Origin: an uncultured Bacilli bacterium
Lineage (GTDB): Bacteria > Bacillota_I > Bacilli_A > RF39 > UBA660
Reading direction: 5' to 3'
Assembly (NCBI GenBank): GCA_947626275.1
Contig: CANQRL010000006.1
Span: 11,638-75,637, forward strand
Length of the DNA stretch: 64,000 nucleotides
A model generated the notes under the pieces. It ran no database searches. It had not been told where the DNA came from and was given only the letters and a program-made list of their open reading frames with translations. Both the position numbers and the translations under genes were made by a program. Below, one piece after another: positions 7,075 to 45,018 of this stretch. Position 1 is the stretch's first letter. Every line of letters begins with the position of its first letter.

Positions 7075-7505
7075 TTCTTCAACCCCTTTAACAACGTATC
7101 GATAATAACATTATCCATGATTGCATTCATAATGGAAATGATAATCGAAACAAGAAATACCATAAAGGTACCGTGGATATTAAAATGTCCCATCAATATC
7201 CAATCCGTTAATTTTAATACAAATACATTCACAATTGGATAGAATAATCCAAGTGTTAAAGCAGTAAGGGGTAATGTTAACCAAAAAAGAAGAGGCTTTA
7301 CCGTTCTATTCAAAATGAAGATAATGATGACCGCTAATATACCCCATAATCCAAAAAATTGATTATCAATATAAACGGTGTCATCAAATACGATAGATAC
7401 GGTAATAAGTACTAATGTATAACCAAAAATGTGAATAAACCAATCTAGAAATCGATTAAGCTTTGGTTTCTTCTGATGGTTTTCTTCTATCACGACTTTT
7501 TTCAT
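7071..7505 (-). CDS. YvlD-like membrane protein (phage holin family 4 annotation)
   Basis: Four hydrophobic segments with VKPLL..LTLP...LTLGLF..IVN; same neighbourhood as B. subtilis yvlD (uvrB...lgt). Confidence 0.75.
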   Translation of the reverse strand: MKKVVIEENHQKKPKLNRFLDWFIHIFGYTLVLITVSIVFDDTVYIDNQFFGLWGILAVIIIFILNRTVKPLLFWLTLPLTALTLGLFYPIVNVFVLKLTDWILMGHFNIHGTFMVFLVSIIISIMNAIMDNVIIDTLLKGLKK

Positions 7506-7531
7506 CTTCCATCTCCCGCTTCATTATATCA

Positions 7532-9475
7532 TCATTCACTCTTTAATTCAAATAACGCATCTCGCAATTCCATAGCTCTTTCAAAGTCTAAATTACGAGC
7601 AGCTTCCTTCATTTCTGCCTCAATACGAACCGCTAAAGAAGCCTTCTCCTGTTTACTCATCTTAGGAGTTTCCTTCTTAGATTCTTTGGTATTGGTAATA
7701 GCTTCTCTAATTTCTTTTATGATGGTCTTTGGAGTAATATGATGCTCTTCATTATATTTTTCTTGAATACTGCGTCGTCTTTCTGTTTCCGTAATCGCTA
7801 TCTTCATGGAATCGCTCATACTATCCGCATACATAATGACACGCCCATTTTGATTACGAGCAGCTCTTCCGACCGTTTGAATGAGACTCCGATCACTTCT
7901 TAAGAAGCCTTGTTTATCCGCATCCATTATCGCTACTAATTCTACTTCAGGAATATCAATTCCTTCACGAAGAAGATTAATTCCAACTAGGACATCATAT
8001 TTTCCAAGCCGTAAATCACGAATAATCTGCATTCTTTCTAGGGTCTTTACCTCAGAATGAAGATACGCAACCTTGATATCTAGTTTTTTTAAATAATTCG
8101 TAAGTTCTTCCGCCATCCGAATAGTTAATGTCGTTACCAATACTCGTGTATTCCTTTCTTTGCATGCGTATATTTGCTCTACTAAATCATCAATCTGCCC
8201 TTTTGATGGATGAACTTCGATCTTAGGATCCAATAATCCGGTTGGACGAATAATTTGTTCCACAACCGAATGACTAAGTCCTAATTCGTAGTCTCCAGGT
8301 GTTGCGGATACATAGATAACCTGATTTAATTTCGAAGCGAATTCATCGAATTTTAATGGTCTATTATCTAGAGCGCTCGGTAACCGAAATCCATATTCTA
8401 CTAAAACTTCTTTTCTCGCTCTATCGCCATTATACATTCCTCTTACTTGCGGAACAGTAACATGAGATTCATCAATGACTAATAGAAAATCCTCTGGAAA
8501 GAAATCGATTAAAGTCTCAGGTGTCTCTCCTGGTCCACGGAGCGCTAGATGACGAGAATAGTTTTCAATTCCACGACAAAAACCAGTCTCTTCTAACATC
8601 TCCATGTCATAATTGGTTCTCTCCTCTAGACGTTGGTATTCCAATAGTTTATTTTCCGCTTTAAACTTTTCTAGCTGTTCTTTTAATTCTTCACGAATAT
8701 TCGCAATCGCTTTTTCTAGTTTCCAATCAGCCGTTACAAAGTGACTGGCTGGAAAAATACTAATGGTCTTTTTATCCGCTAAAATAGCTCCCGTTAAAAC
8801 GTCAAATTCACTAATTCGTTCCACTTCATCCCCAAAAAATTCAATACGAATTCCCTTACTATGCTGGTTAGAAGGAATAATCTCCAGAACATCTCCTTTT
8901 GCTCGAAAAGTCCCTCTTTTAAAATCCAAATTGTTTCGTTCATACAACATGGAAATCAATTTTTCAATGACATTGTCTCTTTCAATGGTTTCCCCTTCGG
9001 CAAGCGTAAGCATTTTATCTTCATAGTCTTGTTTATCACCAATTCCATAAATACAAGAAACAGAGGCGACAACAATGACATCTCTTCTCTTTAATAACGC
9101 ACTCGTAGCGGAGTGTCTTAACTCATCTATTTCATCATTAATCGCAGCATCTTTTTCGATATAAGTATCTGTTTTTGCTACATAGGCTTCTGGTTGATAA
9201 TAGTCATAATAAGAAACAAAATATTCTACGGCATTATTAGGAAATAATTCTTTTAATTCTCCGTAGAGTTGTCCTGCTAAAGTCTTATTATGGGCAAGTA
9301 CTAAAGTGGGTTTATTTACTTCTTTGATAACATTTGCAATGGTAAACGTTTTCCCTGTTCCTGTTGCGCCCAATAATACTTGATGTTTTTCCCCTTTTTG
9401 AATGCCTTCTACTAATTTTTGAATCGCTTCCGGTTGATCCCCACTAGGTTGGTATTTTGATACAAGTTCAAACAT
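7532..9475 (-). CDS. uvrB: Excinuclease ABC subunit B
   Basis: [46 protein letters not shown]-terminal FERA..LRD. Confidence 0.98.
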
Positions 9476-9627
9476 GTAAATCCCCTTTCTACTATGACAT
9501 TTTATAACGTATGATAAACATAAATTTTAACACGATTTTCGTTTTTTATAACAAACCTTCTATCCCATTTTAGTATAGCATAGAATGATTAAAATTTTTA
9601 GGTCTATCTTTTCTATAATCAGACAAA

Positions 9628-10383
9628 CTATTCACATGGCCAATTTTTTTGACTAACATATTCTTTAACAAAATTTCGCTCTTTTTCTTTCGCACTTTCT
9701 TCATACGTTGACTCATCTACAAATGGTTTTCCAATACGTTCATATAAATCATACGCATGCTTAAATTCATGAATATTGATTAAAGCGGTCTCTAAATTAA
9801 TGATTTTAGGAACACCGACATGCATATCAACAATTCTTCCTTCCTCGCATTTTACATTGACAAGGTAAAAAAAGTGATGTGCTTCTTGATGGTGATCACG
9901 AATAGAAACTTTAGGAAAAATATACTCCCAAAAAGCAGTGGGGTAGCCAAGATATTCTATTATGTCCTTAGTACTCAAAAGTAAGCCCTTTCCCCAAATC
10001 TCATAATCAGAAGTTTCCAAAAGTGTTTGAAATTGCTTTTGAGGTCGTTCTCCATATTGTTCTTTCCCCTTTATTGCTTTTTCTAATCCCTTTAATATTT
10101 CTTTATAATAAAGAGAGGTCTTATTCCCAAGGAGGAATAATGCTTCCATAAAACGAATGGTTTCTTCTTCATCTATCTCGGCTATTCCTCTTTCCAAAAA
10201 GGATAAAATGCGATACTGTTTTTCTAATATTTGAAGATATTCTTTTAAGATTTCTTTTACTTCATTTTCTGCTTCTCTACTATGGTGATAGATTCTCAAA
10301 CTTTGTCTTCCTATAGAGGAAAGAGTCTTTCTATCTAAAACTCTCAATTTTTTCAAATAATTATTAAATATAGTTGCATCCAT
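9628..10383 (-). CDS. Hypothetical protein with HEXXH motif (possible Zn metallopeptidase fold)
   Basis: 251-aa ORF with RBS and own TG-TATAAT promoter; ...ALINIHEFKHAYDLY...E motif. Confidence 0.55.
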   Translation of the reverse strand: MDATIFNNYLKKLRVLDRKTLSSIGRQSLRIYHHSREAENEVKEILKEYLQILEKQYRILSFLERGIAEIDEEETIRFMEALFLLGNKTSLYYKEILKGLEKAIKGKEQYGERPQKQFQTLLETSDYEIWGKGLLLSTKDIIEYLGYPTAFWEYIFPKVSIRDHHQEAHHFFYLVNVKCEEGRIVDMHVGVPKIINLETALINIHEFKHAYDLYERIGKPFVDESTYEESAKEKERNFVKEYVSQKNWPCE

Positions 10384-10481
10384 AAAATCACTCTCAGGGA
10401 ACTATTATACAAAAAAGAACTTTTTTTATCTAGCCTTTTCTTTTCCTAAAAATACGGTTATAATAATATTAGAAAGTCGGT

Positions 10482-11777
10482 GTGGATATGGAATTTATTG
10501 AAAACGTAGAGAAAGAAGAATATGAAGAGTTTGTCCAAACACACAAAAAATCCCATTTTTTACAAAGTTATGATTGGGGAGAATTTGCTAGACTAGAAAA
10601 GAATTTTACCCCTTATTATGTCGGATTAAAAGAGGACGGAAAATTAGTCGCTGCTGCCTTACTTTTACAAAAAAAACTTCCTTTAGGTCTTTCTTATTTT
10701 TATTCTCCTAGAGGTTTTGTAATTGACTTTCACGATTTTACCCTATTAGAAAAATTTACCAAAGAAATCAAAAAAATGGCAAAAAAGAAAAGAGCTATCT
10801 TTGTCAAAATTGATCCTGATTTAATTATTCATCGCGAAAATTATCTTGATGAAGAACAGGAAGCCGACTATGACTCTCAAAAAATGTTAGAGAAATTGAA
10901 AAAATTAGGTTTTAAACATTTAGGATTTACTAAAAACTTTGAAACGATGCAGCCAAGATACTCTTTCCGTATTGACATGGAAAAACCAATGGAAGATATT
11001 TATAACTGTTTTTCCAAAACGACCAAACAACGAATCAAAAAAGCAGAAGAATTAGAAGTAGAAGTTTCTATTGGAACCAAAGAAGATATTTCTGAATTTT
11101 ATCGTCTTATGAAATTAACCGAAGACAGAAAAGATTTTGTCTCTCATGGCATAGAATACTATCAAACACTTTACGATTTATTTCATCCTAAAGACCGGTG
11201 TAATCTCTTTATCGGAAAAGTCGATATCGCTAAAATATTAATGAAGAAAAAAGCAGAACTAGAACCACTTTCTCATGAACAAGAGGATCTGCTTGCAATG
11301 GCAGAAAGAAGTAAATCCCAAAATACCAAACTCAAAGAATTAGAGAGAAGAACAGAAAAATTAAAAACGGATATCGAAAAATTTGAAGAGTTAAAAACAT
11401 CTTTTGGTGATCGTGTTGTAGTAAGCGGACACTTTATTATCGAATATGGAGATAAGGCATGGGTGTTATATGCTGGAAATCATAACATTTTAACGGATAC
11501 TTACGCAAACTATAAAACGTATTTTGAGCACATTCAATTTTATCATAATCGCGTAAAGACGTATGATCAATTTGGAACAATTGGTGACCTTCGAAAAGAA
11601 AATCCTCTTCTTGGATTACACGAATTCAAGAAAAAATTTGGTGGAGATTATGTTGAATTTTTAGGAGAGTTTGATTTAATTACGAACCATTTCTTCTATT
11701 TTCTATTTCAAAAACTCGTACCATTCTATCGAAAGATGATGAAAACAAAGGCAAAAAAGAATCATGAAAGCAAATAA
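10482..11777 (+). CDS. FemABX/MurM family peptidoglycan interpeptide-bridge aminoacyltransferase
   Basis: HFLQS..W, YFYSPRGF, FVKIDP, QPRYSF, coiled-coil insert, YDQFG, GL.EFKKKFGG..EFLGEFD. Confidence 0.92.
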   Translation: MDMEFIENVEKEEYEEFVQTHKKSHFLQSYDWGEFARLEKNFTPYYVGLKEDGKLVAAALLLQKKLPLGLSYFYSPRGFVIDFHDFTLLEKFTKEIKKMAKKKRAIFVKIDPDLIIHRENYLDEEQEADYDSQKMLEKLKKLGFKHLGFTKNFETMQPRYSFRIDMEKPMEDIYNCFSKTTKQRIKKAEELEVEVSIGTKEDISEFYRLMKLTEDRKDFVSHGIEYYQTLYDLFHPKDRCNLFIGKVDIAKILMKKKAELEPLSHEQEDLLAMAERSKSQNTKLKELERRTEKLKTDIEKFEELKTSFGDRVVVSGHFIIEYGDKAWVLYAGNHNILTDTYANYKTYFEHIQFYHNRVKTYDQFGTIGDLRKENPLLGLHEFKKKFGGDYVEFLGEFDLITNHFFYFLFQKLVPFYRKMMKTKAKKNHESK

Positions 11778-12677: not shown

Positions 12678-12853
12678 GTGATCCCTTCTTTCTCTTTTCC
12701 TTTTTTCTAGCATCATTTTACCTAGAAACATGTTATTTTTTTCTCCTATCTAATCTAAGTATACACTAATATTTTATTTTAGAATAGCTAAAATTTTTTG
12801 GATATGGTCTTTTTCTTGTAATTATTACTCAACAAAAAAAGGTGTGAAAACAC

Positions 12854-14638
12854 CTAATTTTTACTAATCTTAAAGATTACTTGATATTCATCCTCTAGAT
12901 CATATTCTTCCGTATCAATAGAATATCCGCATTTTTCAATGGTATTATTGACATCACGGATCAAATTAATAATCTGTTTAAAATCAATTTTTTCGGCTGG
13001 CTGAGCAGAAGGTGGTAAAACAGGATCATATTGTTTAGAATAATCTGTGATAATGATTGGCTGAATATCTGTTTTTTCTTCTTTTGCCGTTTCTACAGGT
13101 GCTGGCTCTGGGATTACTGGTTCAGCAGGAACTTTTGTTGGCTCCTCCACCTCATCCTCTTTCGTATCCATAAATGTACTTGGTAATTGATTCTCCATAA
13201 TTGGTGTTGATGGAATGGATGAAATCTCTGGTACCGCTGGTGTATTTAATCCAACTGGGTTAAGAGATGGTACCTCTGGAATAACTGGCATTACTGGCTC
13301 TGGAGTTGCAGGTGCTGCTGGCATTGGTGGTAATTCTGGTGCAACTGGTGTTACTGGTGGAACTGGTTGTAAATCCTCTCCTGGCGTTGGTTGAATAGAA
13401 ACCGTTGCAAATGGAGATGGTGTAGCTTCTTCCTGAAGCTCTTTTTCCACTTCTTGAGCTTCTTTTTGGGTTGGCGTTGCCAATAAATCTTGAAAATTAA
13501 ATGGTTTTTCTGGTTCACTTGAACTAGTAGAAGATCCCATATCCATACTAGATACTGGTGGGACAACAGGTGCTTCTGGTTCTGGGGTTGGCATTGATGG
13601 TAATTCTGGAGCTACTGGTTCTACCGGAGCTATTGGTGGAACCGGAGCTGCTGGTGCAGTAGATTCCATTGACTGTGTAAAAATATTTGGAATAGCTGGT
13701 GCATCTACCTTTTCGAAAGAAGGGTTTGTATCTGACCCAACCATAGAATCAGAAACCATCGTTGGACTTTCTACGATAGGTGTAGAAGGGATTCCTCCCA
13801 TACTAACTTCTGACATAGCTGATAATGGCGTTTGATTTTCTGCTGAAATAGATGGTGTTGATGAAGCAGATTGACTCATTAAAAGTGAGTTAAAATCTAC
13901 TGTCTTTGGTTGTTCAATAACATCTTGTGCTTGTTGTTGTTCTTGATCTACATTCATGAATCCTGGATTGGATGTAACTCCTCCCTCTGGACTAGTACTT
14001 GTATCGGTATCATCAATTGGTTCCGTGATAAAAGTTCCCATTTTCTCTATTTCCTCCTCCGTCTTTCGAACAGTTAATCTATTCTCAATGATTTTCTTTA
14101 GCATCTCTCGTTGTTGAGATGCTTCTTTTAACTTTAATAATGATCTAGCATGTCTTTCTGAAATTTTATCTTCCATAAGAGCTTCTTGAACTTCATCACA
14201 AAGATTTAAAAGCCTAATTTTGTTAGCAACAGAAGATTGACTTTTTCCTAACTTAATAGCTAACTGCTCTTGTGTTAGATACCCCATATCTAATATTTTT
14301 TTATAAGAAATAGCTTCTTCAATAGGACTTAAATCGCGTCTTTGAACATTTTCAATTAAAGCTACTTCCGCACTATCTTTATCATTAAAACTAGAAATAA
14401 TAGCGGGAATAGTTTCCTTGCCTGCTAAAACACTTGCTTTATATCGCCTTTCTCCTGCTATAATTTCGTACTTGTCACCTATAGGACGTACGATAATTGG
14501 CTGAATAACCCCATGTTCTTTGATAGACTCTGACAATTCAATAATCGAATCTTCATTGAACTTGATACGTGGTTGAAAACGATTTGGTAAGATGTCATTT
14601 AAATCTAAATCTACTACTTTAGACCTCGTCTCGTCCAT
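12854..14638 (-). CDS. noc: ParB-family CTPase of Noc (nucleoid occlusion) type with a long Pro/acidic low-complexity insert
   Basis: PNRFQPR, GERRYKA, ENVQR; HTH KSQSSVANKIRLLN...ISERHAR; Noc-like C-terminus IEKCGYSIDTEEYDLEDEYQVIFKI; lies downstream of mnmG-rsmG. Confidence 0.8.
   Translation of the reverse strand: MDETRSKVVDLDLNDILPNRFQPRIKFNEDSIIELSESIKEHGVIQPIIVRPIGDKYEIIAGERRYKASVLAGKETIPAIISSFNDKDSAEVALIENVQRRDLSPIEEAISYKKILDMGYLTQEQLAIKLGKSQSSVANKIRLLNLCDEVQEALMEDKISERHARSLLKLKEASQQREMLKKIIENRLTVRKTEEEIEKMGTFITEPIDDTDTSTSPEGGVTSNPGFMNVDQEQQQAQDVIEQPKTVDFNSLLMSQSASSTPSISAENQTPLSAMSEVSMGGIPSTPIVESPTMVSDSMVGSDTNPSFEKVDAPAIPNIFTQSMESTAPAAPVPPIAPVEPVAPELPSMPTPEPEAPVVPPVSSMDMGSSTSSSEPEKPFNFQDLLATPTQKEAQEVEKELQEEATPSPFATVSIQPTPGEDLQPVPPVTPVAPELPPMPAAPATPEPVMPVIPEVPSLNPVGLNTPAVPEISSIPSTPIMENQLPSTFMDTKEDEVEEPTKVPAEPVIPEPAPVETAKEEKTDIQPIIITDYSKQYDPVLPPSAQPAEKIDFKQIINLIRDVNNTIEKCGYSIDTEEYDLEDEYQVIFKISKN
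13320..13619 (-). repeat. Imperfect internal repeat in the Noc linker (PVAPELP.MP..PEP), copies at ~13320-13349 and ~13590-13619
   Basis: GGCATTGGTGGTAATTCTGGTGCAACTGGT vs GGCATTGATGGTAATTCTGGAGCTACTGGT. Confidence 0.75.
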
Positions 14639-14667: not shown

Positions 14668-14713
14668 ATTATAATATATTTTGGGAAATAATTCAATAAC
14701 CATTTGGGAAATA
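14668..14713 (-). promoter_or_regulatory. Sigma-A promoter of noc (TTGAAT-17-TATAAT) overlapped by a direct repeat of NBS half-sites
   Basis: -10 at 14668-14673, -35 at 14691-14696; TTTGGGAAATA at 14680-14690 and 14703-14713. Confidence 0.6.
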
Positions 14714-14720
14714 TAGAACT

Positions 14721-14750
14721 AAAAATAGACTAGCAACACCAGTCTATTTC
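14721..14750 (-). terminator. Terminator of the MBOAT operon
   Basis: AAATAGACT-N9-AGTCTATTT hairpin plus T run on the minus strand. Confidence 0.7.
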
Positions 14751-15232
14751 TCAACATTCAATTTATATTCGATACTAACGACTTCATTTTCTTCAAAAAT
14801 AAAGGTTAATAAGGTATCTCCTTTTGAATAAGTATAGGCACCTATCGCATCTTCATAATCTTGTCCATAAGTATCCACCACTTCTTCTTTCGTAGAACCT
14901 AACTTAATACCCTCTTTAGTCGCAATCTTATCTGTTAACAATGTAATGGTATAAATTTTTTCAACGTCTTTATCATGATATCCATAAATTTCATAATCAG
15001 CATAAGTATAAATATTGTCTTTTCCTTCAAAAGCACAACTTTCTACCTCTTGAAATTCATAGTTTTCCCCTAAAGCCTCCTTCGATAGAGAAAATTCATC
15101 TCCTACCATTAAATTTTTCCCATTGATCGTAATGGAATATCCCTCTTTTGGAGTTTCTTTTTTCGTTTCTTTCTTTTCTCCACAACCAACAATTGTAAGT
15201 AATATCGCTAAGGTAATCGCTATTTTTTTCAT
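14744..15232 (-). CDS. Lipoprotein of unknown function
   Basis: MKK..lipobox TIVGC; repeated IKLGSTKEEV..TYG-type motif; ATGA overlap with the upstream gene. Confidence 0.75.
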   Translation of the reverse strand: MKKIAITLAILLTIVGCGEKKETKKETPKEGYSITINGKNLMVGDEFSLSKEALGENYEFQEVESCAFEGKDNIYTYADYEIYGYHDKDVEKIYTITLLTDKIATKEGIKLGSTKEEVVDTYGQDYEDAIGAYTYSKGDTLLTFIFEENEVVSIEYKLNVEK

Positions 15233-16284
15233 TCAAAACCTCCATACATTTTTATTTTACCATACTCGTCAAGTTCCTCATATTGTTGCCTCTTCATTTT
15301 TTCATAATCAGCTTTTTTATGTTCGTAACTTTCTTTGATTTTGGAATTTTTTCTTAAATCCTCTAACTCATAATTTTCTTGTAAATAGGCACCAAAGTAA
15401 TCGGTCAATTTTTCAGCTCCACTGACATTTAAATGTAGACCTGCATCATAAGTATCTTGTTCATAATCTATCCCAATTTCTTCTCTTTTCTCGTAGAAAT
15501 TGAGATAATCAAGAGAATATTTTGATGCATACTCCATGATTTGTTTTTCATACTCTTCATACCAATAAGGGTAAGTAGAAGGAGCTTTTATCAAAATCAA
15601 TTCAATATCATTTTCTTCACATAATTGACGAATTTTATCTAAGTAAGCTACATTTTCTTTTGAAAATTGATAACTCGCTAATCGTTTTCCTTGATAAAAC
15701 GTCGTAACTGGTTTGACATCCACTCTCATTAAATAGCCATTATGAGAGATTTTTTTTCTTTTTAAATAATAGCTAAAATCTTCTTTTGTTAATTCTAAAA
15801 TTCGACTGTGATAACGAAATATAGGAAAAATATAATCGATGAGTGTTTCTCCTTCAACCATGGAATCTTTTATCAAATCAAATTTAATGGACGACGTTTT
15901 CATTCCATCTAGTAGTAATCGATTATATGCTTCTTTTTTTTCTTCTTCCCCGTAGCGCAATGCATTTACGCTTAGTACAACTATCTTTGGTTTCTCATAT
16001 AATAACGTTTCCCTTAATAGATGATAAGATTGATGGATTAACTGCTGCGAATTTCCTCGAATATAGGAAGTATAACCGTATTTATCAAATAATGTAATCG
16101 GAGAAAAATTAGAATATACTTCACAATCTCCGATAAAAATAATTTGATGATTTTTTTCATCCTCGTAATATTCTCTCGTTAAGGAACCTTCTACGAGTTC
16201 TAATTGATATTTAGGAACAACTAATTGCTGCAAACCTAAAAAAAGGAGTAGAAATAAAAGAATATATAAAAAAACTTTTTTCAT
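15229..16284 (-). CDS. Membrane-anchored SGNH/GDSL-like acyltransferase/esterase (DltD/AlgX/PatB-like partner of MBOAT)
   Basis: N-terminal anchor; block I IIFIGDCEVY; C-terminal DAGLHLNVSGA. Confidence 0.75.
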   Translation of the reverse strand: MKKVFLYILLFLLLFLGLQQLVVPKYQLELVEGSLTREYYEDEKNHQIIFIGDCEVYSNFSPITLFDKYGYTSYIRGNSQQLIHQSYHLLRETLLYEKPKIVVLSVNALRYGEEEKKEAYNRLLLDGMKTSSIKFDLIKDSMVEGETLIDYIFPIFRYHSRILELTKEDFSYYLKRKKISHNGYLMRVDVKPVTTFYQGKRLASYQFSKENVAYLDKIRQLCEENDIELILIKAPSTYPYWYEEYEKQIMEYASKYSLDYLNFYEKREEIGIDYEQDTYDAGLHLNVSGAEKLTDYFGAYLQENYELEDLRKNSKIKESYEHKKADYEKMKRQQYEELDEYGKIKMYGGFE

Positions 16285-16292
16285 GTCATCAC

Positions 16293-17618
16293 CTAAAATC
16301 TACTATAGATAAAATCTGTTTTTTCAAAACCGATTCCATAACTACCAAAAAGAATAATGATAAAGATAAAAAGAATTAATAAAAGATAATCACGATTTTT
16401 AAAAGAAGTTGAGAAAGATTTCTTTTTATATTTTTGATATTCTACAACTCCTAAAAAGAGAATAGCAATCCATAAAACAATAAAATTAGAAAGACTCATA
16501 ACTTCAAAAAGGGAAAGCGTATTCGTATTATGAAAAATAGAAAGGATAGAGGAAAGATTAGGATACATAAAAAAAATCCATAAAACACATACTATTCCAT
16601 AATTGGCAAGCATAAAAATTGGCTTTTTAGGTTGATAGTTCATCCTTTTTTCCATAACTAATAAAATGCCATTACAAAGTCCCCACAAAAAGAAATTCCA
16701 AGTAGGACCATGCCACATTCCACTCAATAAAAAGACAATTAAAATATTAAGACTGTTTCTTAATTTCGATACTCTATTTCCACCCAATGGGATATAAACA
16801 TAATCTCGAAACCAACTTGTTAAACTGATATGCCATCTTTTCCAAAACTCATTTAAATTTTTAGAAAAATAAGGAGTATCGAAATTTTCTAAAAGATTGA
16901 TTTGCAAGATTCTAGAAAAACCGATAACAATATCGATTCCAGAAGAAAAATCGGTATAGATTTGAATGCCATAAAGTAGTAATCCTAAAACAACACCCAA
17001 TCCTCCTATTTCGTTTGTAACGATATAAGAAGTAAGAATACTAATTCGATTGGCAATCACTAATTTTTTAAAACATCCCCAAAGAATTCTAAGAAGACCT
17101 TCTTTTGCCTGCAACCGAGAAAAAGAATGAGGCTTCAAAAGAGTGTCTTTTATTTTGGTATAACGATTAATGGGTCCTTGAATTAATGTTGGAAAAAAGG
17201 AAATAGAAAGGAGAAATTGAAAATAGGAATCCGGTGAAATCTTTTTTTGATACGTATCTACCAAATAAGAAATAGAAGATAGTGTATAATACGAAATTCC
17301 TAGTGGTACAATTAAGGAAAAAGCATCATCAACATAAGAAAATAAATCGTATTTTAGAACAATTAATAATCCGATATTAAAGATAATTCCTATCCATAAT
17401 TTCCATTTAGAATACTTTTCTCTTTTCGATATGGACAAACTGAAAAAGTAAGTTACTAGAGAACTGCATAGTAAATAGACAAGAGAAGAATGGAAGGCAT
17501 AAAATAAAAGAGAAAAAAGAAGAAGAATACCCCACTGTTGCTTCTTAGGAACAAGGTAATAGAAAATGACAACGACCGCTAAAAAGAGAAAAAACTCTAA
17601 AGAAATCATTTGAATCAT
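16293..17618 (-). CDS. MBOAT family O-acyltransferase (AlgI/DltB/PatA-like)
   Basis: PLGISYYT, FFPTLIQGPI, YTDFS, NFDTPYFS, FWKRWHISL..WFRDYVYIPLGGNR, SGMWHG; ATG 17618 overlaps the upstream TGA. Confidence 0.92.
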   Translation of the reverse strand: MIQMISLEFFLFLAVVVIFYYLVPKKQQWGILLLFSLLFYAFHSSLVYLLCSSLVTYFFSLSISKREKYSKWKLWIGIIFNIGLLIVLKYDLFSYVDDAFSLIVPLGISYYTLSSISYLVDTYQKKISPDSYFQFLLSISFFPTLIQGPINRYTKIKDTLLKPHSFSRLQAKEGLLRILWGCFKKLVIANRISILTSYIVTNEIGGLGVVLGLLLYGIQIYTDFSSGIDIVIGFSRILQINLLENFDTPYFSKNLNEFWKRWHISLTSWFRDYVYIPLGGNRVSKLRNSLNILIVFLLSGMWHGPTWNFFLWGLCNGILLVMEKRMNYQPKKPIFMLANYGIVCVLWIFFMYPNLSSILSIFHNTNTLSLFEVMSLSNFIVLWIAILFLGVVEYQKYKKKSFSTSFKNRDYLLLILFIFIIILFGSYGIGFEKTDFIYSRF

Positions 17619-19159
17619 TTGGCAGCCGGCCACCCACTATGATCCCAAGAAGCTATTTGTCCATACTCTTCATCTGTCATCAATTTTGTTGCATTTGCTC
17701 CTGGTGTCGAATCTAAATGTCTCCATCCCTCTTCTACATGGACTAAATTCCAATAATGACTTTTTGTTCTCGTATGAATTTGTTTATTTTCTATTCCTGC
17801 TAGATCAAGCATTATCTTAGATATTGCATAATGCGTAAAACAATCTCCTTTTCTTTTGGTAATTCCCTCCCAAGCAGATGGATATAGACTTCTTAAATCA
17901 CTACTCGTATAACTAATATTTTTAGCAACCCAATTTCGAATAGCGAGAGCTGTTTCTGATTTAGAATTACCTTTTATACTATTGACAATGGGACGCAATT
18001 TATCTTTAATATCCTGAGCATTTCCTGTAATGATAACGGTTCTTGTTTTTTTTGTCGTATTTCCCTGAGCATCATTAGCCGTATACGTAACTTTGTAAGT
18101 TCCAGGGCTTTTTTCATTAACTTTACTCTTATCGTAAGATACTTTTACTTTTCCATCATGATTATCTATCGCAGTTACATTTTTGGTATAATTGATTTTT
18201 TCTCCACGAACAACATGAATCGTAGATAGATTATAAATGACAGGTCCACTCGTATCTTTTTTAATCGTTAATTTAGCTGTTACTTCTGTTTGATTTCCCG
18301 CTTCATCTGTTATTTTTATTTTGACATCTTGGGTCCCTATTTTAGAATAATTGATGGTACTAACATATTCCTTTTTCACGCTCGTTCCATCGCTAACACG
18401 CTTTAGAAACTGATTGATAGAAGAAACTTTTTGATCCCACCAAATAGTAACGTTTTGTGTTTTTACAACAGGTTTTTGTGTATCTTGTACTAAAACATTG
18501 ATATGATAGGTTTCCTCATCAACTTTCAAAATCATCTCCTGTTGACCTAATTTTTTAGTATTCACTTTTTGGATAATCTCTGCATTATCGATATCATCTT
18601 GACTATATAAAGCATCCTTAGCGGTAATATTTTTTCCAGCTTCAACAACAAGATTTTGTTTCACTTTTCCAAACTCTAGGGTGGCTGTTTCTTTTGTTGT
18701 ATTTCCTGAAACATCTTCAGCGACAATCACCACTTCTTGCTTTCCCGATTTTCTTTCTATTTCCTTTTCAAAAGAAAGAGTGCATTCTGTCTCATCTTCT
18801 AATGTTTCAACAAATAATTCTGGCGTTACTTCATCTTCCAAACCAAGTTTTACTGTTTTCGTCTTCAAGATAGGAGCTTGGGTATCGACAATTTCTAACA
18901 CGGTTTTATAGTAATTTCCATTGACTTCAATCTCTATCGCATGCTTTCCTAATTTACTCGTATCAATATTAGAAACATTGGTGATAAATTTAGCATCACT
19001 AGAAAACCCTTTGAAGAAAGAAGCAAGCTGGATTGAATGATTGATTTCTAATTTTACAAGACTGAGTGGTTTAATAGTATTTAAACAAAGAGCAAAAGAA
19101 ATAACAATCATAGAAAATACGATACTGATAATTACTCTTTTTTCTCTAAAGTACTGCAT
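17615..19159 (-). CDS. Exported Ig-like (DUF5011/HYR-type) repeat protein with C-terminal transglutaminase-like domain
   Basis: N-terminal anchor; repeats ending DTQAP/DTQKP/DTSGP; KGDCFTHY...HYWNLV...WRHLDST Cys-His-Asp triad. Confidence 0.8.
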   Translation of the reverse strand: MQYFREKRVIISIVFSMIVISFALCLNTIKPLSLVKLEINHSIQLASFFKGFSSDAKFITNVSNIDTSKLGKHAIEIEVNGNYYKTVLEIVDTQAPILKTKTVKLGLEDEVTPELFVETLEDETECTLSFEKEIERKSGKQEVVIVAEDVSGNTTKETATLEFGKVKQNLVVEAGKNITAKDALYSQDDIDNAEIIQKVNTKKLGQQEMILKVDEETYHINVLVQDTQKPVVKTQNVTIWWDQKVSSINQFLKRVSDGTSVKKEYVSTINYSKIGTQDVKIKITDEAGNQTEVTAKLTIKKDTSGPVIYNLSTIHVVRGEKINYTKNVTAIDNHDGKVKVSYDKSKVNEKSPGTYKVTYTANDAQGNTTKKTRTVIITGNAQDIKDKLRPIVNSIKGNSKSETALAIRNWVAKNISYTSSDLRSLYPSAWEGITKRKGDCFTHYAISKIMLDLAGIENKQIHTRTKSHYWNLVHVEEGWRHLDSTPGANATKLMTDEEYGQIASWDHSGWPAAK

Positions 19160-28622: not shown

Positions 28623-29975
28623 ATGGAATTAGAAAGCATTTGGAACACCTTTTTGGAAAAAATAAAAAATCAATTAAATGAAATTTCCTATGAAACCTGG
28701 TTTTCCGAAACAACTTTATTTTCCTTGGATAATGGGGTAGCCAAAATATTAGTACCGTCGCATGTACATAAAAAGAACTTAAAGGAACACTACATTGATT
28801 TAATTGAAGAAAATTTTACAGAAGTAACCGGTACAAATTGGAAATACGAATTTTATATTGAAGAAGAATTAGAAAAATCAATTGTAGTCAATACCGATGA
28901 AATAGGGATTCCATCGAATACCTTTGAAAGTAATCTAGATAGTAAATATCGATTTGATAACTTTGTAATAGGGAATAGTAACAAGTTTGCAGCCACTTCC
29001 GCATTAGCGGTTGCAGAACAACCTGGAAATATGTATAATCCGCTATTTATCTATGGATCTAGTGGACTTGGAAAAACACACTTGATGCATGCGATTGGAA
29101 ATTATATTACAGAAAATAATAAAAAAATGAAAGTGTTATACATCCCATGTGATAAATTCGTATCTGATTTCGTAGAAATCTGCCGTAAAAGTGCGAATGA
29201 AAATAACATGGAATCTATTAAACAATTTAAAAATAAGTATCGGGAAATTGATGTCTTAATCATTGATGACATTCATAACTTAGTAGGGGCGACAAGTGCT
29301 CAACAAGAATTTTTCAACACTTTCAATGAATTATATAACAATAAAAAACAAATTATTATTTCTTCTGATAGATCACCAGAGGATATTAAGAAATTAGAAG
29401 AGCGTTTAAAAACAAGATTTAATTGGGGTCTCCAAATTGATATTCTTCCTCCAGAATTTGAACTTCGCATGAATATTATTAATAAGAAAATAGAAATGCA
29501 AGACTTAGAAAACAAATTTCCGGAAGAAGTTAAAGAATATATCGCTAGTAACTGCGTAGGGGACATTCGCAAGCTAGAAGGGGCTATTACTAGAGTTTAT
29601 GCCTATGCAACTATCATGAATGGTTCCGATATTACCTTAGATTTAGCAGTAGAAGCTTTAAAAGATTTCTTCGTTCAAACCATTGTTGCTAAAAATAAAA
29701 TTGATCAAGTTATTCAATTAGTAAGTGAAAACTATAATATTAGTGCAGAAGATTTAAAAAGTAAGAAAAAAACAAATAATATTGCGATTCCAAGACAAAT
29801 TGCCATGTATATCTGTCGCATTTATTTAGAAGAAAACCTCACAAAAATAGGAATTGAATTTGGTGGTAAAAACCATACAACGGTTATGCACGCTGTTGAT
29901 AAAATCAAAAAAGAAATTTTAAAAGATGAAGCTTTGAACAACGAAATTCAAAAAATTATCAACAGAATTCACTAA
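28623..29975 (+). CDS. dnaA: Chromosomal replication initiator
   Basis: YNPLFIYGSSGLGKTHL, IIDDI, RFNWGL, DIRKLEGA, GGKNHTTVMHA. Confidence 0.99.
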   Translation: MELESIWNTFLEKIKNQLNEISYETWFSETTLFSLDNGVAKILVPSHVHKKNLKEHYIDLIEENFTEVTGTNWKYEFYIEEELEKSIVVNTDEIGIPSNTFESNLDSKYRFDNFVIGNSNKFAATSALAVAEQPGNMYNPLFIYGSSGLGKTHLMHAIGNYITENNKKMKVLYIPCDKFVSDFVEICRKSANENNMESIKQFKNKYREIDVLIIDDIHNLVGATSAQQEFFNTFNELYNNKKQIIISSDRSPEDIKKLEERLKTRFNWGLQIDILPPEFELRMNIINKKIEMQDLENKFPEEVKEYIASNCVGDIRKLEGAITRVYAYATIMNGSDITLDLAVEALKDFFVQTIVAKNKIDQVIQLVSENYNISAEDLKSKKKTNNIAIPRQIAMYICRIYLEENLTKIGIEFGGKNHTTVMHAVDKIKKEILKDEALNNEIQKIINRIH

Positions 29976-31343: not shown

Positions 31344-31799
31344 GTGAAAGACGAATATGAAATTAATTCATCTACATTGGCTATTGTACCAATCGATTCT
31401 GAATGTTCAAAAATTTATGAAGAAGAAGCAGAATATATTGTACACAAGAATGTGCATAAAATCATTGATTATAATTGTAAGTTTTATGGTAGTAGCTATC
31501 GGGGAAGATGTGAGGGAACAAAGTATTTAACAGGAATTAAATCTAAATTTCCAATTATTATTGAAGAGAGTAGAAATATGATTTTTTTCCCAACAAATTC
31601 TAATCGCAATGCGGAAAATATTTGGATTAGTTTAGATAAAATAAAAACATATGAAAAAAATTATTATGGTACAACAATTGAATTTCACAATCATAAGAAA
31701 ATCCATATTCCAGCATCTTTTTATTCTATTGATAATCAATATTATCGTGCTAGTATGTTAAAGACGAAATTATATGATAGAAAATTTGCAAAAAAATAG
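31344..31799 (+). CDS. comK: ComK-family competence transcription factor
   Basis: YEINSSTLAI, IIDYNCKFYGSSYRGR..GT..LTG...K.PIII......FFPT, WIS; typical ComK layout. Confidence 0.85.
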   Translation: MKDEYEINSSTLAIVPIDSECSKIYEEEAEYIVHKNVHKIIDYNCKFYGSSYRGRCEGTKYLTGIKSKFPIIIEESRNMIFFPTNSNRNAENIWISLDKIKTYEKNYYGTTIEFHNHKKIHIPASFYSIDNQYYRASMLKTKLYDRKFAKK

Positions 31800-37577: not shown

Positions 37578-37592
37578 TCACTTTCTTTTTTT
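37562..37592 (+). terminator. Terminator of recF-gyrB-gyrA
   Basis: AGAAAGTGA-N7-TCACTTTCT plus T run. Confidence 0.75.
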
Positions 37593-37607
37593 GTTTCACG
37601 TGAAACG
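37592..37607. promoter_or_regulatory. parS centromere site 1
   Basis: TGTTTCACGTGAAACG, 15/16 to the TGTTTCACGTGAAACA consensus. Confidence 0.85.
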
Positions 37608-37732: not shown

Positions 37733-37748
37733 TGTTCCACGTGGAACA
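37733..37748. promoter_or_regulatory. parS centromere site 2
   Basis: TGTTCCACGTGGAACA, perfect palindrome. Confidence 0.9.
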
Positions 37749-43612: not shown

Positions 43613-44461
43613 TTGATGTCACAAAAAAGTTATGATGGGAGTCCAACTCTTTATCTAATACCTACCCCTATTGGAAATATGGATGATTTAACATATCGTA
43701 CAGTCAAAGTATTAGAAAGTGTAGATGTTTTATTCTGTGAAGATACAAGAGAAACAGGACTTCTTTTAAATTATTTAGGCATTAAGAAAAAATTGATTGC
43801 GAATCATGAGTATAATGAAGCCAATAATCATGGAAAAATTTTAGAGTATCTAAAAGAAGGAAAAACGGTTGGCTTAGTAAGTGATCGAGGAACACCTGTT
43901 ATCAGTGATCCTGGTTATGAACTTGCTCGTTATGTTATAGAAGAAGGATATAATGTTGTTGCTCTTCCAGGTGCGACTGCGTTGATACCTGCCTTAATTA
44001 CTTCCGGTCTTGCTCCTATGCCATTTCTTTTCTATGGTTTTTTAAATAGTAAAAAGTCTAAAAAAGAACAGGAATTAGAGTCATTAAAACGAGAAAAAGC
44101 GACCATGATATTTTATGAAGCTCCCCATCGTATAGAAGAGACATTAACCTCTATGTTGAACATTTTGGGAAATAGAAAAATTAGTATTTCCCGGGAAATA
44201 ACCAAAAAATACGAAGAAATTTATCGGGGAAATATTTCTGATATTCTTCCAAAAACACTTGAAATGAAAGGGGAAATGGTTATTGTAGTAGCGGGAAATA
44301 ATGAAATGAGAGATTTTTCTTCGCTTACGATAACTGAGCATGTAAACCTCTATTTAGAAGATGGACTATCCAAAATGGATGCCATGAAACAAGTCGCCAA
44401 AGAGCGGGGTATTAAAAAAAGTGAAGTCTATGAAGAATATGTAAGGGGAGAGGACAAATGA
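43613..44461 (+). CDS. rsmI: 16S rRNA C1402 2'-O-methyltransferase
   Basis: LYLIPTPIGN..D, CEDTR, SDRGTP.ISDPG, FYEAPHR, SREITKKYEE. Confidence 0.95.
   Translation: MMSQKSYDGSPTLYLIPTPIGNMDDLTYRTVKVLESVDVLFCEDTRETGLLLNYLGIKKKLIANHEYNEANNHGKILEYLKEGKTVGLVSDRGTPVISDPGYELARYVIEEGYNVVALPGATALIPALITSGLAPMPFLFYGFLNSKKSKKEQELESLKREKATMIFYEAPHRIEETLTSMLNILGNRKISISREITKKYEEIYRGNISDILPKTLEMKGEMVIVVAGNNEMRDFSSLTITEHVNLYLEDGLSKMDAMKQVAKERGIKKSEVYEEYVRGEDK
44185..44200. promoter_or_regulatory. Perfect Noc-binding site (NBS) inside rsmI
   Basis: TATTTCCCGGGAAATA exact palindrome. Confidence 0.75.
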
Positions 44462-45018
44462 AATTAATTGTCGGTTTGGGAAATCCTGGAAAGGAATATG
44501 AAAACACGCGCCATAACGTGGGATTTATGGCATTAGATAGAATTGCGCAGTTTCTAGGAGTAATATTTCAAAAAGAAAAATTCCAAGGTCTCTATGCAGA
44601 AGCAACGTATGAAGGAGAAAAATATATTTTATTAAAGCCACAAAAATATATGAATCTATCAGGAGAGGTAGTAGGAGACTTTGTTCGTTTCTTCAAGATA
44701 GATCATAAGGATATTTTAGTTCTCTATGATGATTTAGATACTGCTATAGGGAGTATGAGATTACGCTATCAAGGAAGTAGCGGTGGACATAATGGAATTA
44801 AAAATATCGAAATGCATTTAGGAACGAGAGAGTACAATCGAATTAAATTTGGAATTTCGAATAATAAAACCATGGATACGAAAGATTATGTTTTAGGTCA
44901 TTTTTCCAAAGAAGAAAAAGAATTAATGGATAAAACATTAGATAAAGTGGTTGATATTTTTAAAGATTATTCGAAATTAACGTTTGATAATTTAATGAAT
45001 AAATATAATGGTAAATAG
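44458..45018 (+). CDS. pth: Peptidyl-tRNA hydrolase
   Basis: VGLGNPG..Y..TRHNVGF, KPQKYMNLSG, DDLD, GGHNG. Confidence 0.97.
   Translation: MKLIVGLGNPGKEYENTRHNVGFMALDRIAQFLGVIFQKEKFQGLYAEATYEGEKYILLKPQKYMNLSGEVVGDFVRFFKIDHKDILVLYDDLDTAIGSMRLRYQGSSGGHNGIKNIEMHLGTREYNRIKFGISNNKTMDTKDYVLGHFSKEEKELMDKTLDKVVDIFKDYSKLTFDNLMNKYNGK

Follow-up and report, generated by a model that had tools for sequence, protein, structure and literature searches.

In the accepted model of Noc, the nucleoid occlusion protein and a guard of the division site, a cytidine triphosphate (CTP) switch frees an N-terminal amphipathic helix, by which DNA bound at Noc-binding sites (NBS) is tied to the membrane; this membrane helix is helix alpha1, and helix alpha2 is conserved in Noc (Jalal 2021, PMC8429893). 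The amphipathic helix was present in every Noc homologue examined, and Noc minus its first 10 residues was non-functional (Adams 2015, PMC4331003). The model presumes that the helix is both universal and essential. The present analysis concerns a noc-like gene for a protein of 594 residues, located in a 64-kb window (the whole stretch of DNA that was analysed) from a rabbit-gut bacterium, and the very large natural clade of true Noc orthologues to which the protein belongs. The clade has lost the helix, has kept the parts that read DNA and bind CTP, and has gained a long, acidic, disordered linker with conserved docking-like motifs.

The closest described system is Noc of B. subtilis and G. 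thermoleovorans (TIGR04285; PDB entries 7OL9, 7NFU, 7NG0 and 6Y93), with which the 594-residue protein shares the N-terminal CTP domain, a helix-turn-helix domain with Q, R and a permissive K, an NBS palindrome in the genome, a weakly Noc-like C-terminal end and a gene position after rsmG. It differs in the absence of alpha1 and alpha2, in a connector of 349 instead of about 16 residues between the DNA-binding and C-terminal domains, in N instead of K at position 184 and in NBS half-sites within its own promoter. Spo0J/ParB (B. subtilis, 6SDK; T. thermophilus, 1VZ0) has the same fold and CTP boxes (190 residues align at about 43% identity); it has R and G as base-readers, a ParA-stimulating N-terminal peptide and a short linker, whereas the 594-residue protein has an N-terminus of 17 residues and no adjoining soj gene. 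KorB of plasmid RK2 (PDB 8QA8), likewise a ParB-family clamp with sites at promoters including that of its own operon, acts with a protein partner, KorA; it is a distant match (E 7e-15), uses other DNA sites and is without a long acidic linker. With SlmA of E. coli only a functional analogy is possible, in that a protein bound site-specifically to DNA would make contact with protein and not with lipid. SlmA, in contrast, has a TetR fold and binds FtsZ directly, and there is no evidence of FtsZ binding for the 594-residue protein.

Gene, family assignment and the N-terminus

The gene and the domains of its product were located as follows:
12854..14638, minus strand: noc-like coding sequence including the stop codon, 594 residues (open reading frame; Pfam ParB_N and HTH_ParB; TIGR04285)
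14342..14617, minus strand: ParB N-terminal CTP-binding domain, residues 8-99 (PF02195, E 1.4e-32)
14039..14335, minus strand: helix-turn-helix DNA-binding domain, residues 102-200 (PF17762, HTH_ParB, E 6.4e-34; aligned with the Noc structures 7NFU and 7OL9)
12989..14035, minus strand: disordered acidic Pro-rich linker, residues 202-550, 349 residues (model confidence, composition)
12857..12988, minus strand: C-terminal domain of a helix and two strands, residues 551-594, weakly Noc-like (TIGR04285 positions 212-255; model confidence 94-97)
12840..12855, minus strand: terminator-like hairpin over the stop codon, followed by a T-run (sequence)

On the sequence evidence, the protein is a Noc orthologue and not a Spo0J orthologue. 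The Noc model TIGR04285 matched it in two colinear stretches with 290.8 bits, as against 182 bits for the generic ParB model, and the top matches in the PDB were Noc of G. thermoleovorans and of B. subtilis (200 and 190 bits), with Spo0J at 179 and 164 bits. In a maximum-likelihood tree with four reference sequences, Spo0J (B. subtilis, T. thermophilus) was split from Noc and the long-linker family with 97/91 support, and the long-linker family was placed as the sister of canonical Noc. The slot downstream of rsmG (gidB) is the canonical position of noc, and rsmG directly precedes the noc-like gene in 79 of 81 related loci. Together with the NBS in the window and in the promoters of relatives (see below), these results uphold the assignment made in a preliminary description of the stretch, in which the protein had been called a Noc variant. 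It is classed as a variant because it has descended from Noc, yet is without one of the features that define Noc functionally.

The same description had read the protein as starting MDETRSKVVD behind an in-frame stop, with intact ParB CTPase motifs, a Noc-like C-terminus and no membrane anchor. The start was reproduced in the translation of the open reading frame; it is not movable upstream, because the ATG is preceded, at 9-10 codons, by two in-frame stops and follows an AAGAGG ribosome-binding site. With the hairpin at its other end, the gene looks monocistronic. A search for RNA runs that would show its expression listed none. Both CTP boxes are present, namely Box II GERRYKA (residues 62-68) and Box III ENVQR (residues 96-100), and the core residues Q46, G62, E63, R64, R65, E96, N97, Q99 and R100 are invariant in 39 diverse relatives. 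The residue equivalent to R91 is K in the 594-residue protein; the exchange R91A is tolerated by B. subtilis Noc (Adams 2015, PMC4331003). The N-terminal domain was modelled by AlphaFold with a predicted local distance difference test (pLDDT) of 64-88. As to the C-terminus, the Noc-like order stood, the last 44 residues being colinear with the end of TIGR04285 (positions 212-255), but the match is weak (18 bits, E 1e-3, with this piece scanned alone), and a Foldseek search of the C-terminal model against the PDB returned nothing below E = 1 and hence no solved counterpart. The domain is presumed to be the dimerisation domain.

The absence of the anchor was confirmed by several lines of evidence and found to be family-wide. 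In the alignment with B. subtilis Noc, residue 2 of the protein falls on residue 24, and helices alpha1 and alpha2 are both absent (about 22 residues together). The PNRFQPR box begins 17 residues into the protein, and in almost all of 257 relatives its first residue is number 14-21; the best 50%-identity clusters, with lengths of 291-982 residues, align from residue 1-10 in 150 of 150 cases. A re-annotated N-terminus carrying an amphipathic helix is not possible with the stops upstream, and a hydrophobic-moment scan detected no cationic amphipathic segment anywhere in the 594 residues, the sole strongly amphipathic helix being the structural helix of the C-terminal domain. Relocation of the membrane helix into the linker was also considered and was ruled out for this protein, since no net-positive 11-residue window was found in the linker and its helical hydrophobic moments are low.

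A subfamily of 750-850 residues (P0064, P0065, P0081, P0100 and others; 32 of 367) carries one to three linker copies of F-x-K-F-[FLI]-[DN]-P, a motif similar to F-S-R-F-F, the core of the membrane helix in B. subtilis Noc, and absent from the 594-residue protein; judged by this similarity, the anchor may have been relocated in that subfamily.

Among the matches listed, relatives carry only the NCBI name 'ParB/RepB/Spo0J family partition protein', and the 594-residue protein itself scores under the curated Noc cut-off, which amounts to an annotation gap. No description of helix-less long-linker Noc proteins was found in literature searches.

The linker and its conserved islands

The insert consists of 18.5% P, 11% S, 10.7% E, 8.7% T and 8.7% V; it contains ten Lys and zero Arg, 2.9% aromatic residues and a net charge of -44, and it takes the place of the connector of canonical Noc. 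A self-driven condensate was judged unlikely from this composition (no Arg, few aromatic residues, strongly negative charge). The pLDDT was below 50 almost throughout residues 202-550 (AlphaFold), and no Pfam families were matched within the linker. The P/E/S/T-rich insert of about 350 residues that had been reported, and its disorder, are thus borne out, and its internal repeats are real and modest: the DNA contains runs with periods of 9 and 18 nt and a single copy of 49 nt that is 80% identical. Four metagenome runs, drawn from two studies (rabbit gut, 2022; gut metagenomes, 2024), gave contigs in which the linker stretch is colinear and free of indels and joints, and the identical 594-residue product is encoded on four contigs.

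Several hundred long homologues were found in the protein collection, and a genome scan returned 370 species-level genomes with a relative. The best 80 of these 370 are almost all metagenome-assembled genomes (MAGs) of uncultured gut 'Bacilli' or 'Tenericutes', including Candidatus Fimihabitans, and their hosts are rabbit, ruminants, mouse, chicken and human; the NCBI labels for the relatives' genomes are 'Bacilli', 'Tenericutes' and 'Mycoplasmatota incertae sedis'. In 153 members taken as complete, the linker is 88-609 residues long (median 273), its net charge is negative in every case (-9 to -84), and its median contents are 14% Pro and 3% Lys plus Arg. Near-identical relatives (P0012, P0015, P0018 and P0028; 546-697 residues) differ by repeat copy number, which indicates that the linker grows and shrinks quickly. 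Relatives accordingly keep a long, Pro-rich, always acidic linker of drifting sequence, and the insert is not an assembly artefact of one MAG, as the preliminary description had allowed for, being colinear in the contigs of both studies and family-wide.

In these four relatives and in P0089, a unit of about 28 residues around G-Y-Q-F-D-A-N-G-[MV]-V is present in four to nine linker copies and recalls the hairpin repeats of YD/RHS type; its copy number varies among otherwise identical proteins, which points to length variation at the strain level.

In an alignment of 121 sequences, conservation within the linker was near zero except for a few islands. The motif set of the 594-residue protein comprises PIIITDYSKQYDPVLP, IPSTPIVE, KPFNFQDLLA, VDFNSLL and NPGFMNVD, and the individual features are:
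13946..13969, minus strand: NPGFMNVD, residues 224-231 (conservation island)
13880..13900, minus strand: VDFNSLL, residues 247-253 (conservation island; short AlphaFold helix at 249-251)
13769..13792, minus strand: IPSTPIVE, copy 1, residues 283-290 (conservation island)
13478..13507, minus strand: KPFNFQDLLA, residues 378-387 (conserved among closer relatives)
13193..13216, minus strand: IPSTPIME, copy 2, residues 475-482 (conservation island; P479 nearly invariant)
13013..13063, minus strand: family-wide motif QPIIITDYSKQYDPVLP, residues 526-542, immediately N-terminal to the C-terminal domain (alignment)

The last of these is the best-conserved stretch outside the folded domains in the same alignment. 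Its near-invariant consensus is P-I-I-[IV]-T-D-Y-x-K-Q-Y-D-P-[VI]-x-P, in which P527, I529, D532, Y533, K535, Y537, D538 and P539 are invariant, and a fragment model gave it a pLDDT of 66-79 and no regular secondary structure. The PIIITDYxKQYDP motif served to select the 153 complete members, so that its presence in 153 of 153 is circular. Of the other islands, the core [ST][ST]PI[IV]E (island form [MI]P[ST][ST]PI[IV]E) was found in 83 of the 153, and NPGF[VM]DV in about one third of complete relatives. An island of the form hydrophobic-[DN]-hydrophobic-x-x-L-L occurs twice in the 594-residue protein, as VDFNSLL and as FNFQDLL, and a helix is predicted at residues 389-399, after KPFNFQDLLA (AlphaFold, pLDDT 65-73).

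DNA specificity and binding sites

The four specificity positions read Q-K-N-R (in GKSQ, ANK, RLLN and SERHAR; Q134, K140, N145 and R162), as was confirmed by the open reading frame and by alignment to the Noc structures. The same four residues occur in 193 of 257 relatives, and Q first and R last in every relative classified. In Caulobacter numbering, Q173 reads adenine 1 and R201 cytosine 6 of NBS, one lysine, at 179 or 184, is enough as the permissive residue, and binders of parS retained R173 in a deep mutational scan (Jalal 2020, PMC7383237). Because Q173 and R201 read NBS and K179 or K184 suffices, the Q-K-N-R protein is predicted to be NBS-specific; no data on the Q-K-N-R variant were found in the supplement of Jalal 2020. 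The N at the third position, where Noc has K, is not a functional departure, as either lysine suffices and N is the norm in this family.

NBS and parS sites of the source genome were scanned in the 64-kb window only. The NBS-related features are:
44185..44200, unstranded: perfect 16-bp NBS TATTTCCCGGGAAATA (site scan; kept in a sister MAG)
44167..44484, unstranded: half-site cluster around the perfect NBS, with 7 of the 15 ATTTCCC/GGGAAAT of the window (kept in a sister MAG)
14668..14696, minus strand: predicted sigma-70-type promoter TTGAAT-17-TATAAT (10 of 12 matches)
14683..14689, minus strand: NBS half-site ATTTCCC in the promoter spacer, at about -51 relative to the ATG (half-site scan)
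14706..14712, minus strand: NBS half-site ATTTCCC just 5' of the -35 element, at about -74 relative to the ATG (half-site scan)

The sister MAG GCA_947632115.1 keeps the NBS and the half-site cluster (its contig L089, 21123-21249). The cluster lies about 16 kb from dnaA and may be a strong Noc loading region. It sits within and just past a methyltransferase gene (43613-44461), that is, in coding DNA.

In 1.41 Mb of related loci, 18 NBS with at most one mismatch were found versus 0.05 expected, and 15 of the 18 precede the noc start by 90-300 bp. The half-site ATTTCCC was found at -110 to -35 in 73 of 77 related loci, with peaks at -75 and at -52; the background density of the half-site is 0.18 per kb per strand. 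These promoter half-sites point to autoregulation, and the noc-like protein probably controls its own gene; they also provide independent support that the long-linker family reads the NBS half-site.

Three parS-like sites were obtained in the parS scan:
37592-37607: parS-like palindrome with one mismatch
37733-37748: parS-like site, perfect palindrome
62206-62221: parS-like palindrome with two mismatches

The second of these differs in the sister MAG by a symmetric pair of substitutions (TGTTCCACGTGGAACA versus TGTTTCACGTGAAACA), by which the palindrome is kept. Such a change implies a dimeric reader of parS, and the palindromic parS sites would imply that a separate Spo0J exists. The sites at 37592 and 37733 flank a short conserved stretch just after gyrA.

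Mechanism, rival readings and genomic surroundings

A Noc without an anchor must work differently from textbook Noc, and because the 594-residue protein appears unable to bind lipid itself, its output probably proceeds via the linker. According to the reading that we prefer, dimers loaded at NBS would close into sliding clamps that depend on CTP, the noc-like gene would be autoregulated through binding at the half-sites of its promoter, and the short linear motifs of the linker, including PIIITDYxKQYDP, would dock the DNA-bound clamp to one or more protein partners at the membrane or the divisome. The chain, acidic and rich in Pro, would serve as a long tether, with a coil of about 15-20 nm and up to about 125 nm when stretched, and its length would greatly enlarge the lumen of the clamp. 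For the whole chain of NBS loading, autoregulation and partner docking we estimate a probability of about 0.5. Conserved islands within an unconserved linker are the pattern typical of binding motifs, and these short motifs favour partner recruitment over the other mechanisms that had been proposed.

Several observations weigh against this reading. No conserved partner gene was found by synteny, the neighbours being housekeeping genes only, and the linker motifs were found in no other open reading frame of the window and the related loci (about 1.5 Mb of related DNA). The family-wide motif might, according to its model, belong to the C-terminal dimer as a semi-ordered portion instead of being a docking site. 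The promoter half-sites are direct repeats and not palindromes, so that binding of a Noc dimer there is not assured. The TIGR04285 score of 290.8 bits is below the curated NCBIfam Noc cut-off of 315 bits, a shortfall due to the missing N-terminus and to the splitting of the model match by the insert, and the tree has only four PDB-derived references, on long branches, because the linker-deleted query returned mostly members of the long-linker family of 400-450 residues. Lastly, we infer CTP binding, clamp closure, NBS binding and the lack of lipid binding from the sequence.

Two further accounts are each regarded as unlikely. The linker could be a passive acidic brush without a partner: clamps would coat the DNA and exclude FtsZ filaments or other machinery sterically or electrostatically; in addition or instead, the enlarged ring might slide past roadblocks, and the motifs might help the C-terminal dimer to fold or make contacts within the molecule. 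Such a brush would be in keeping with linkers that, in all 153 complete members, stay net negative and rich in Pro despite drifting in sequence and length, as it would with the near-identical relatives that differ only in repeat copy number, the lack of a linked partner gene, and the position of the PIIITDYxKQYDP motif, of intermediate pLDDT, directly against the C-terminal domain; however, NPGFxDV, VDFNSLL, the two PSTPI[IV]E and KPFNFQDLLA lie far from that domain and are conserved in an otherwise unconserved chain. The lineage could also have repurposed Noc as a KorB-like CTP clamp that is a repressor of its own promoter and perhaps of others, or as an organiser of the origin region, with no role in nucleoid occlusion. 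Operator-like half-sites in or beside the -35 and -10 elements at 73 of 77 loci, NBS-like palindromes upstream of the gene in 15 loci, the NBS cluster at 16 kb from dnaA and the loss of the helix needed for nucleoid occlusion in B. subtilis are all compatible with this improbable alternative. Autoregulation is, however, compatible with nucleoid occlusion as well, the distribution of NBS was read from 64 kb of the genome only, and simple repression needs no long motif-bearing linker.

The remaining readings concern the place of the protein among ParB-family clamps or the integrity of the gene. No second ParB or Soj was detected in the window and its extensions of about 17 kb (about 10 kb to the left and about 7 kb to the right), nor within 10 kb of the noc-like gene in 79 of 80 relatives, and three good parS sites are present in the window; the protein might therefore be the centromere-binding ParB, equivalent to Spo0J, serving parS sites at the origin alone or besides NBS. 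This is very unlikely: Q173 and R201 switch the specificity off parS, whose binders keep R173, a ParA-interacting N-terminal peptide is absent, the protein groups with Noc in the tree, and its own promoter bears half-sites of NBS and not of parS. A decidedly doubtful but more far-reaching idea is that the lineage has no canonical Spo0J/Soj and that the anchorless Noc is its sole ParB-family clamp, in a protein-mediated system of segregation or occlusion distinct from both ParABS and textbook Noc. If this were true, the clamp would be loaded at NBS near the origin, the acidic motif-bearing tether would link the origin to a membrane or divisome protein, and some unrecognised factor, or else a second mode of binding, would account for the reading of the palindromic parS sites. 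That the gene is an assembly artefact, or is decaying with a junk middle, is next to inconceivable. In DNA of low complexity with a 9-nt period, misassembly could occur, but the colinearity across two independent studies and the same product on four contigs speak against it, the frame is open over 1.8 kb with the C-terminal domain conserved in frame, and the architecture is common to hundreds of relatives; these results already refute this reading.

The clade offers a concrete case for asking how a ParB-family clamp gets re-wired to another output, what effect a very long linker between the DNA-binding and C-terminal domains has on loading and sliding of the clamp, and whether nucleoid occlusion in Firmicutes can be protein-mediated.

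The window covers the replication-origin region, with dnaA at 28623 and, on the opposite strand, rnpA-yidC-jag-mnmE-mnmG-rsmG. In the window and in the nearest relatives only, rsmG and the noc-like gene are separated by a four-gene envelope operon (14744-19159), which codes for an Ig/transglutaminase protein, an MBOAT acyltransferase, a 351-residue protein that matches no Pfam family, and a lipoprotein. In one related locus (L012), a ParA/ParB pair was considered as a chromosomal soj-spo0J and was rejected as being of mobile-element type on account of a truncated uvrB; there (7503-10844), uvrB is cut to 102 residues and is followed by a membrane protein and the ParA/ParB pair, so that an element seems to have integrated downstream of noc.

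Genes of sporulation type (SpoIIR, SpoIID and BofA) were also found, as was a ComK-like gene between dnaN and recF:
L081 (left extension) 15002-15508; L083 (right extension) 668-1585; L089 17894-18079; window 31344-31799: SpoIIR, SpoIID, BofA and ComK-like loci

Judged by this gene content, the lineage may form spores, though NCBI files its relatives under Tenericutes/Mycoplasmatota.

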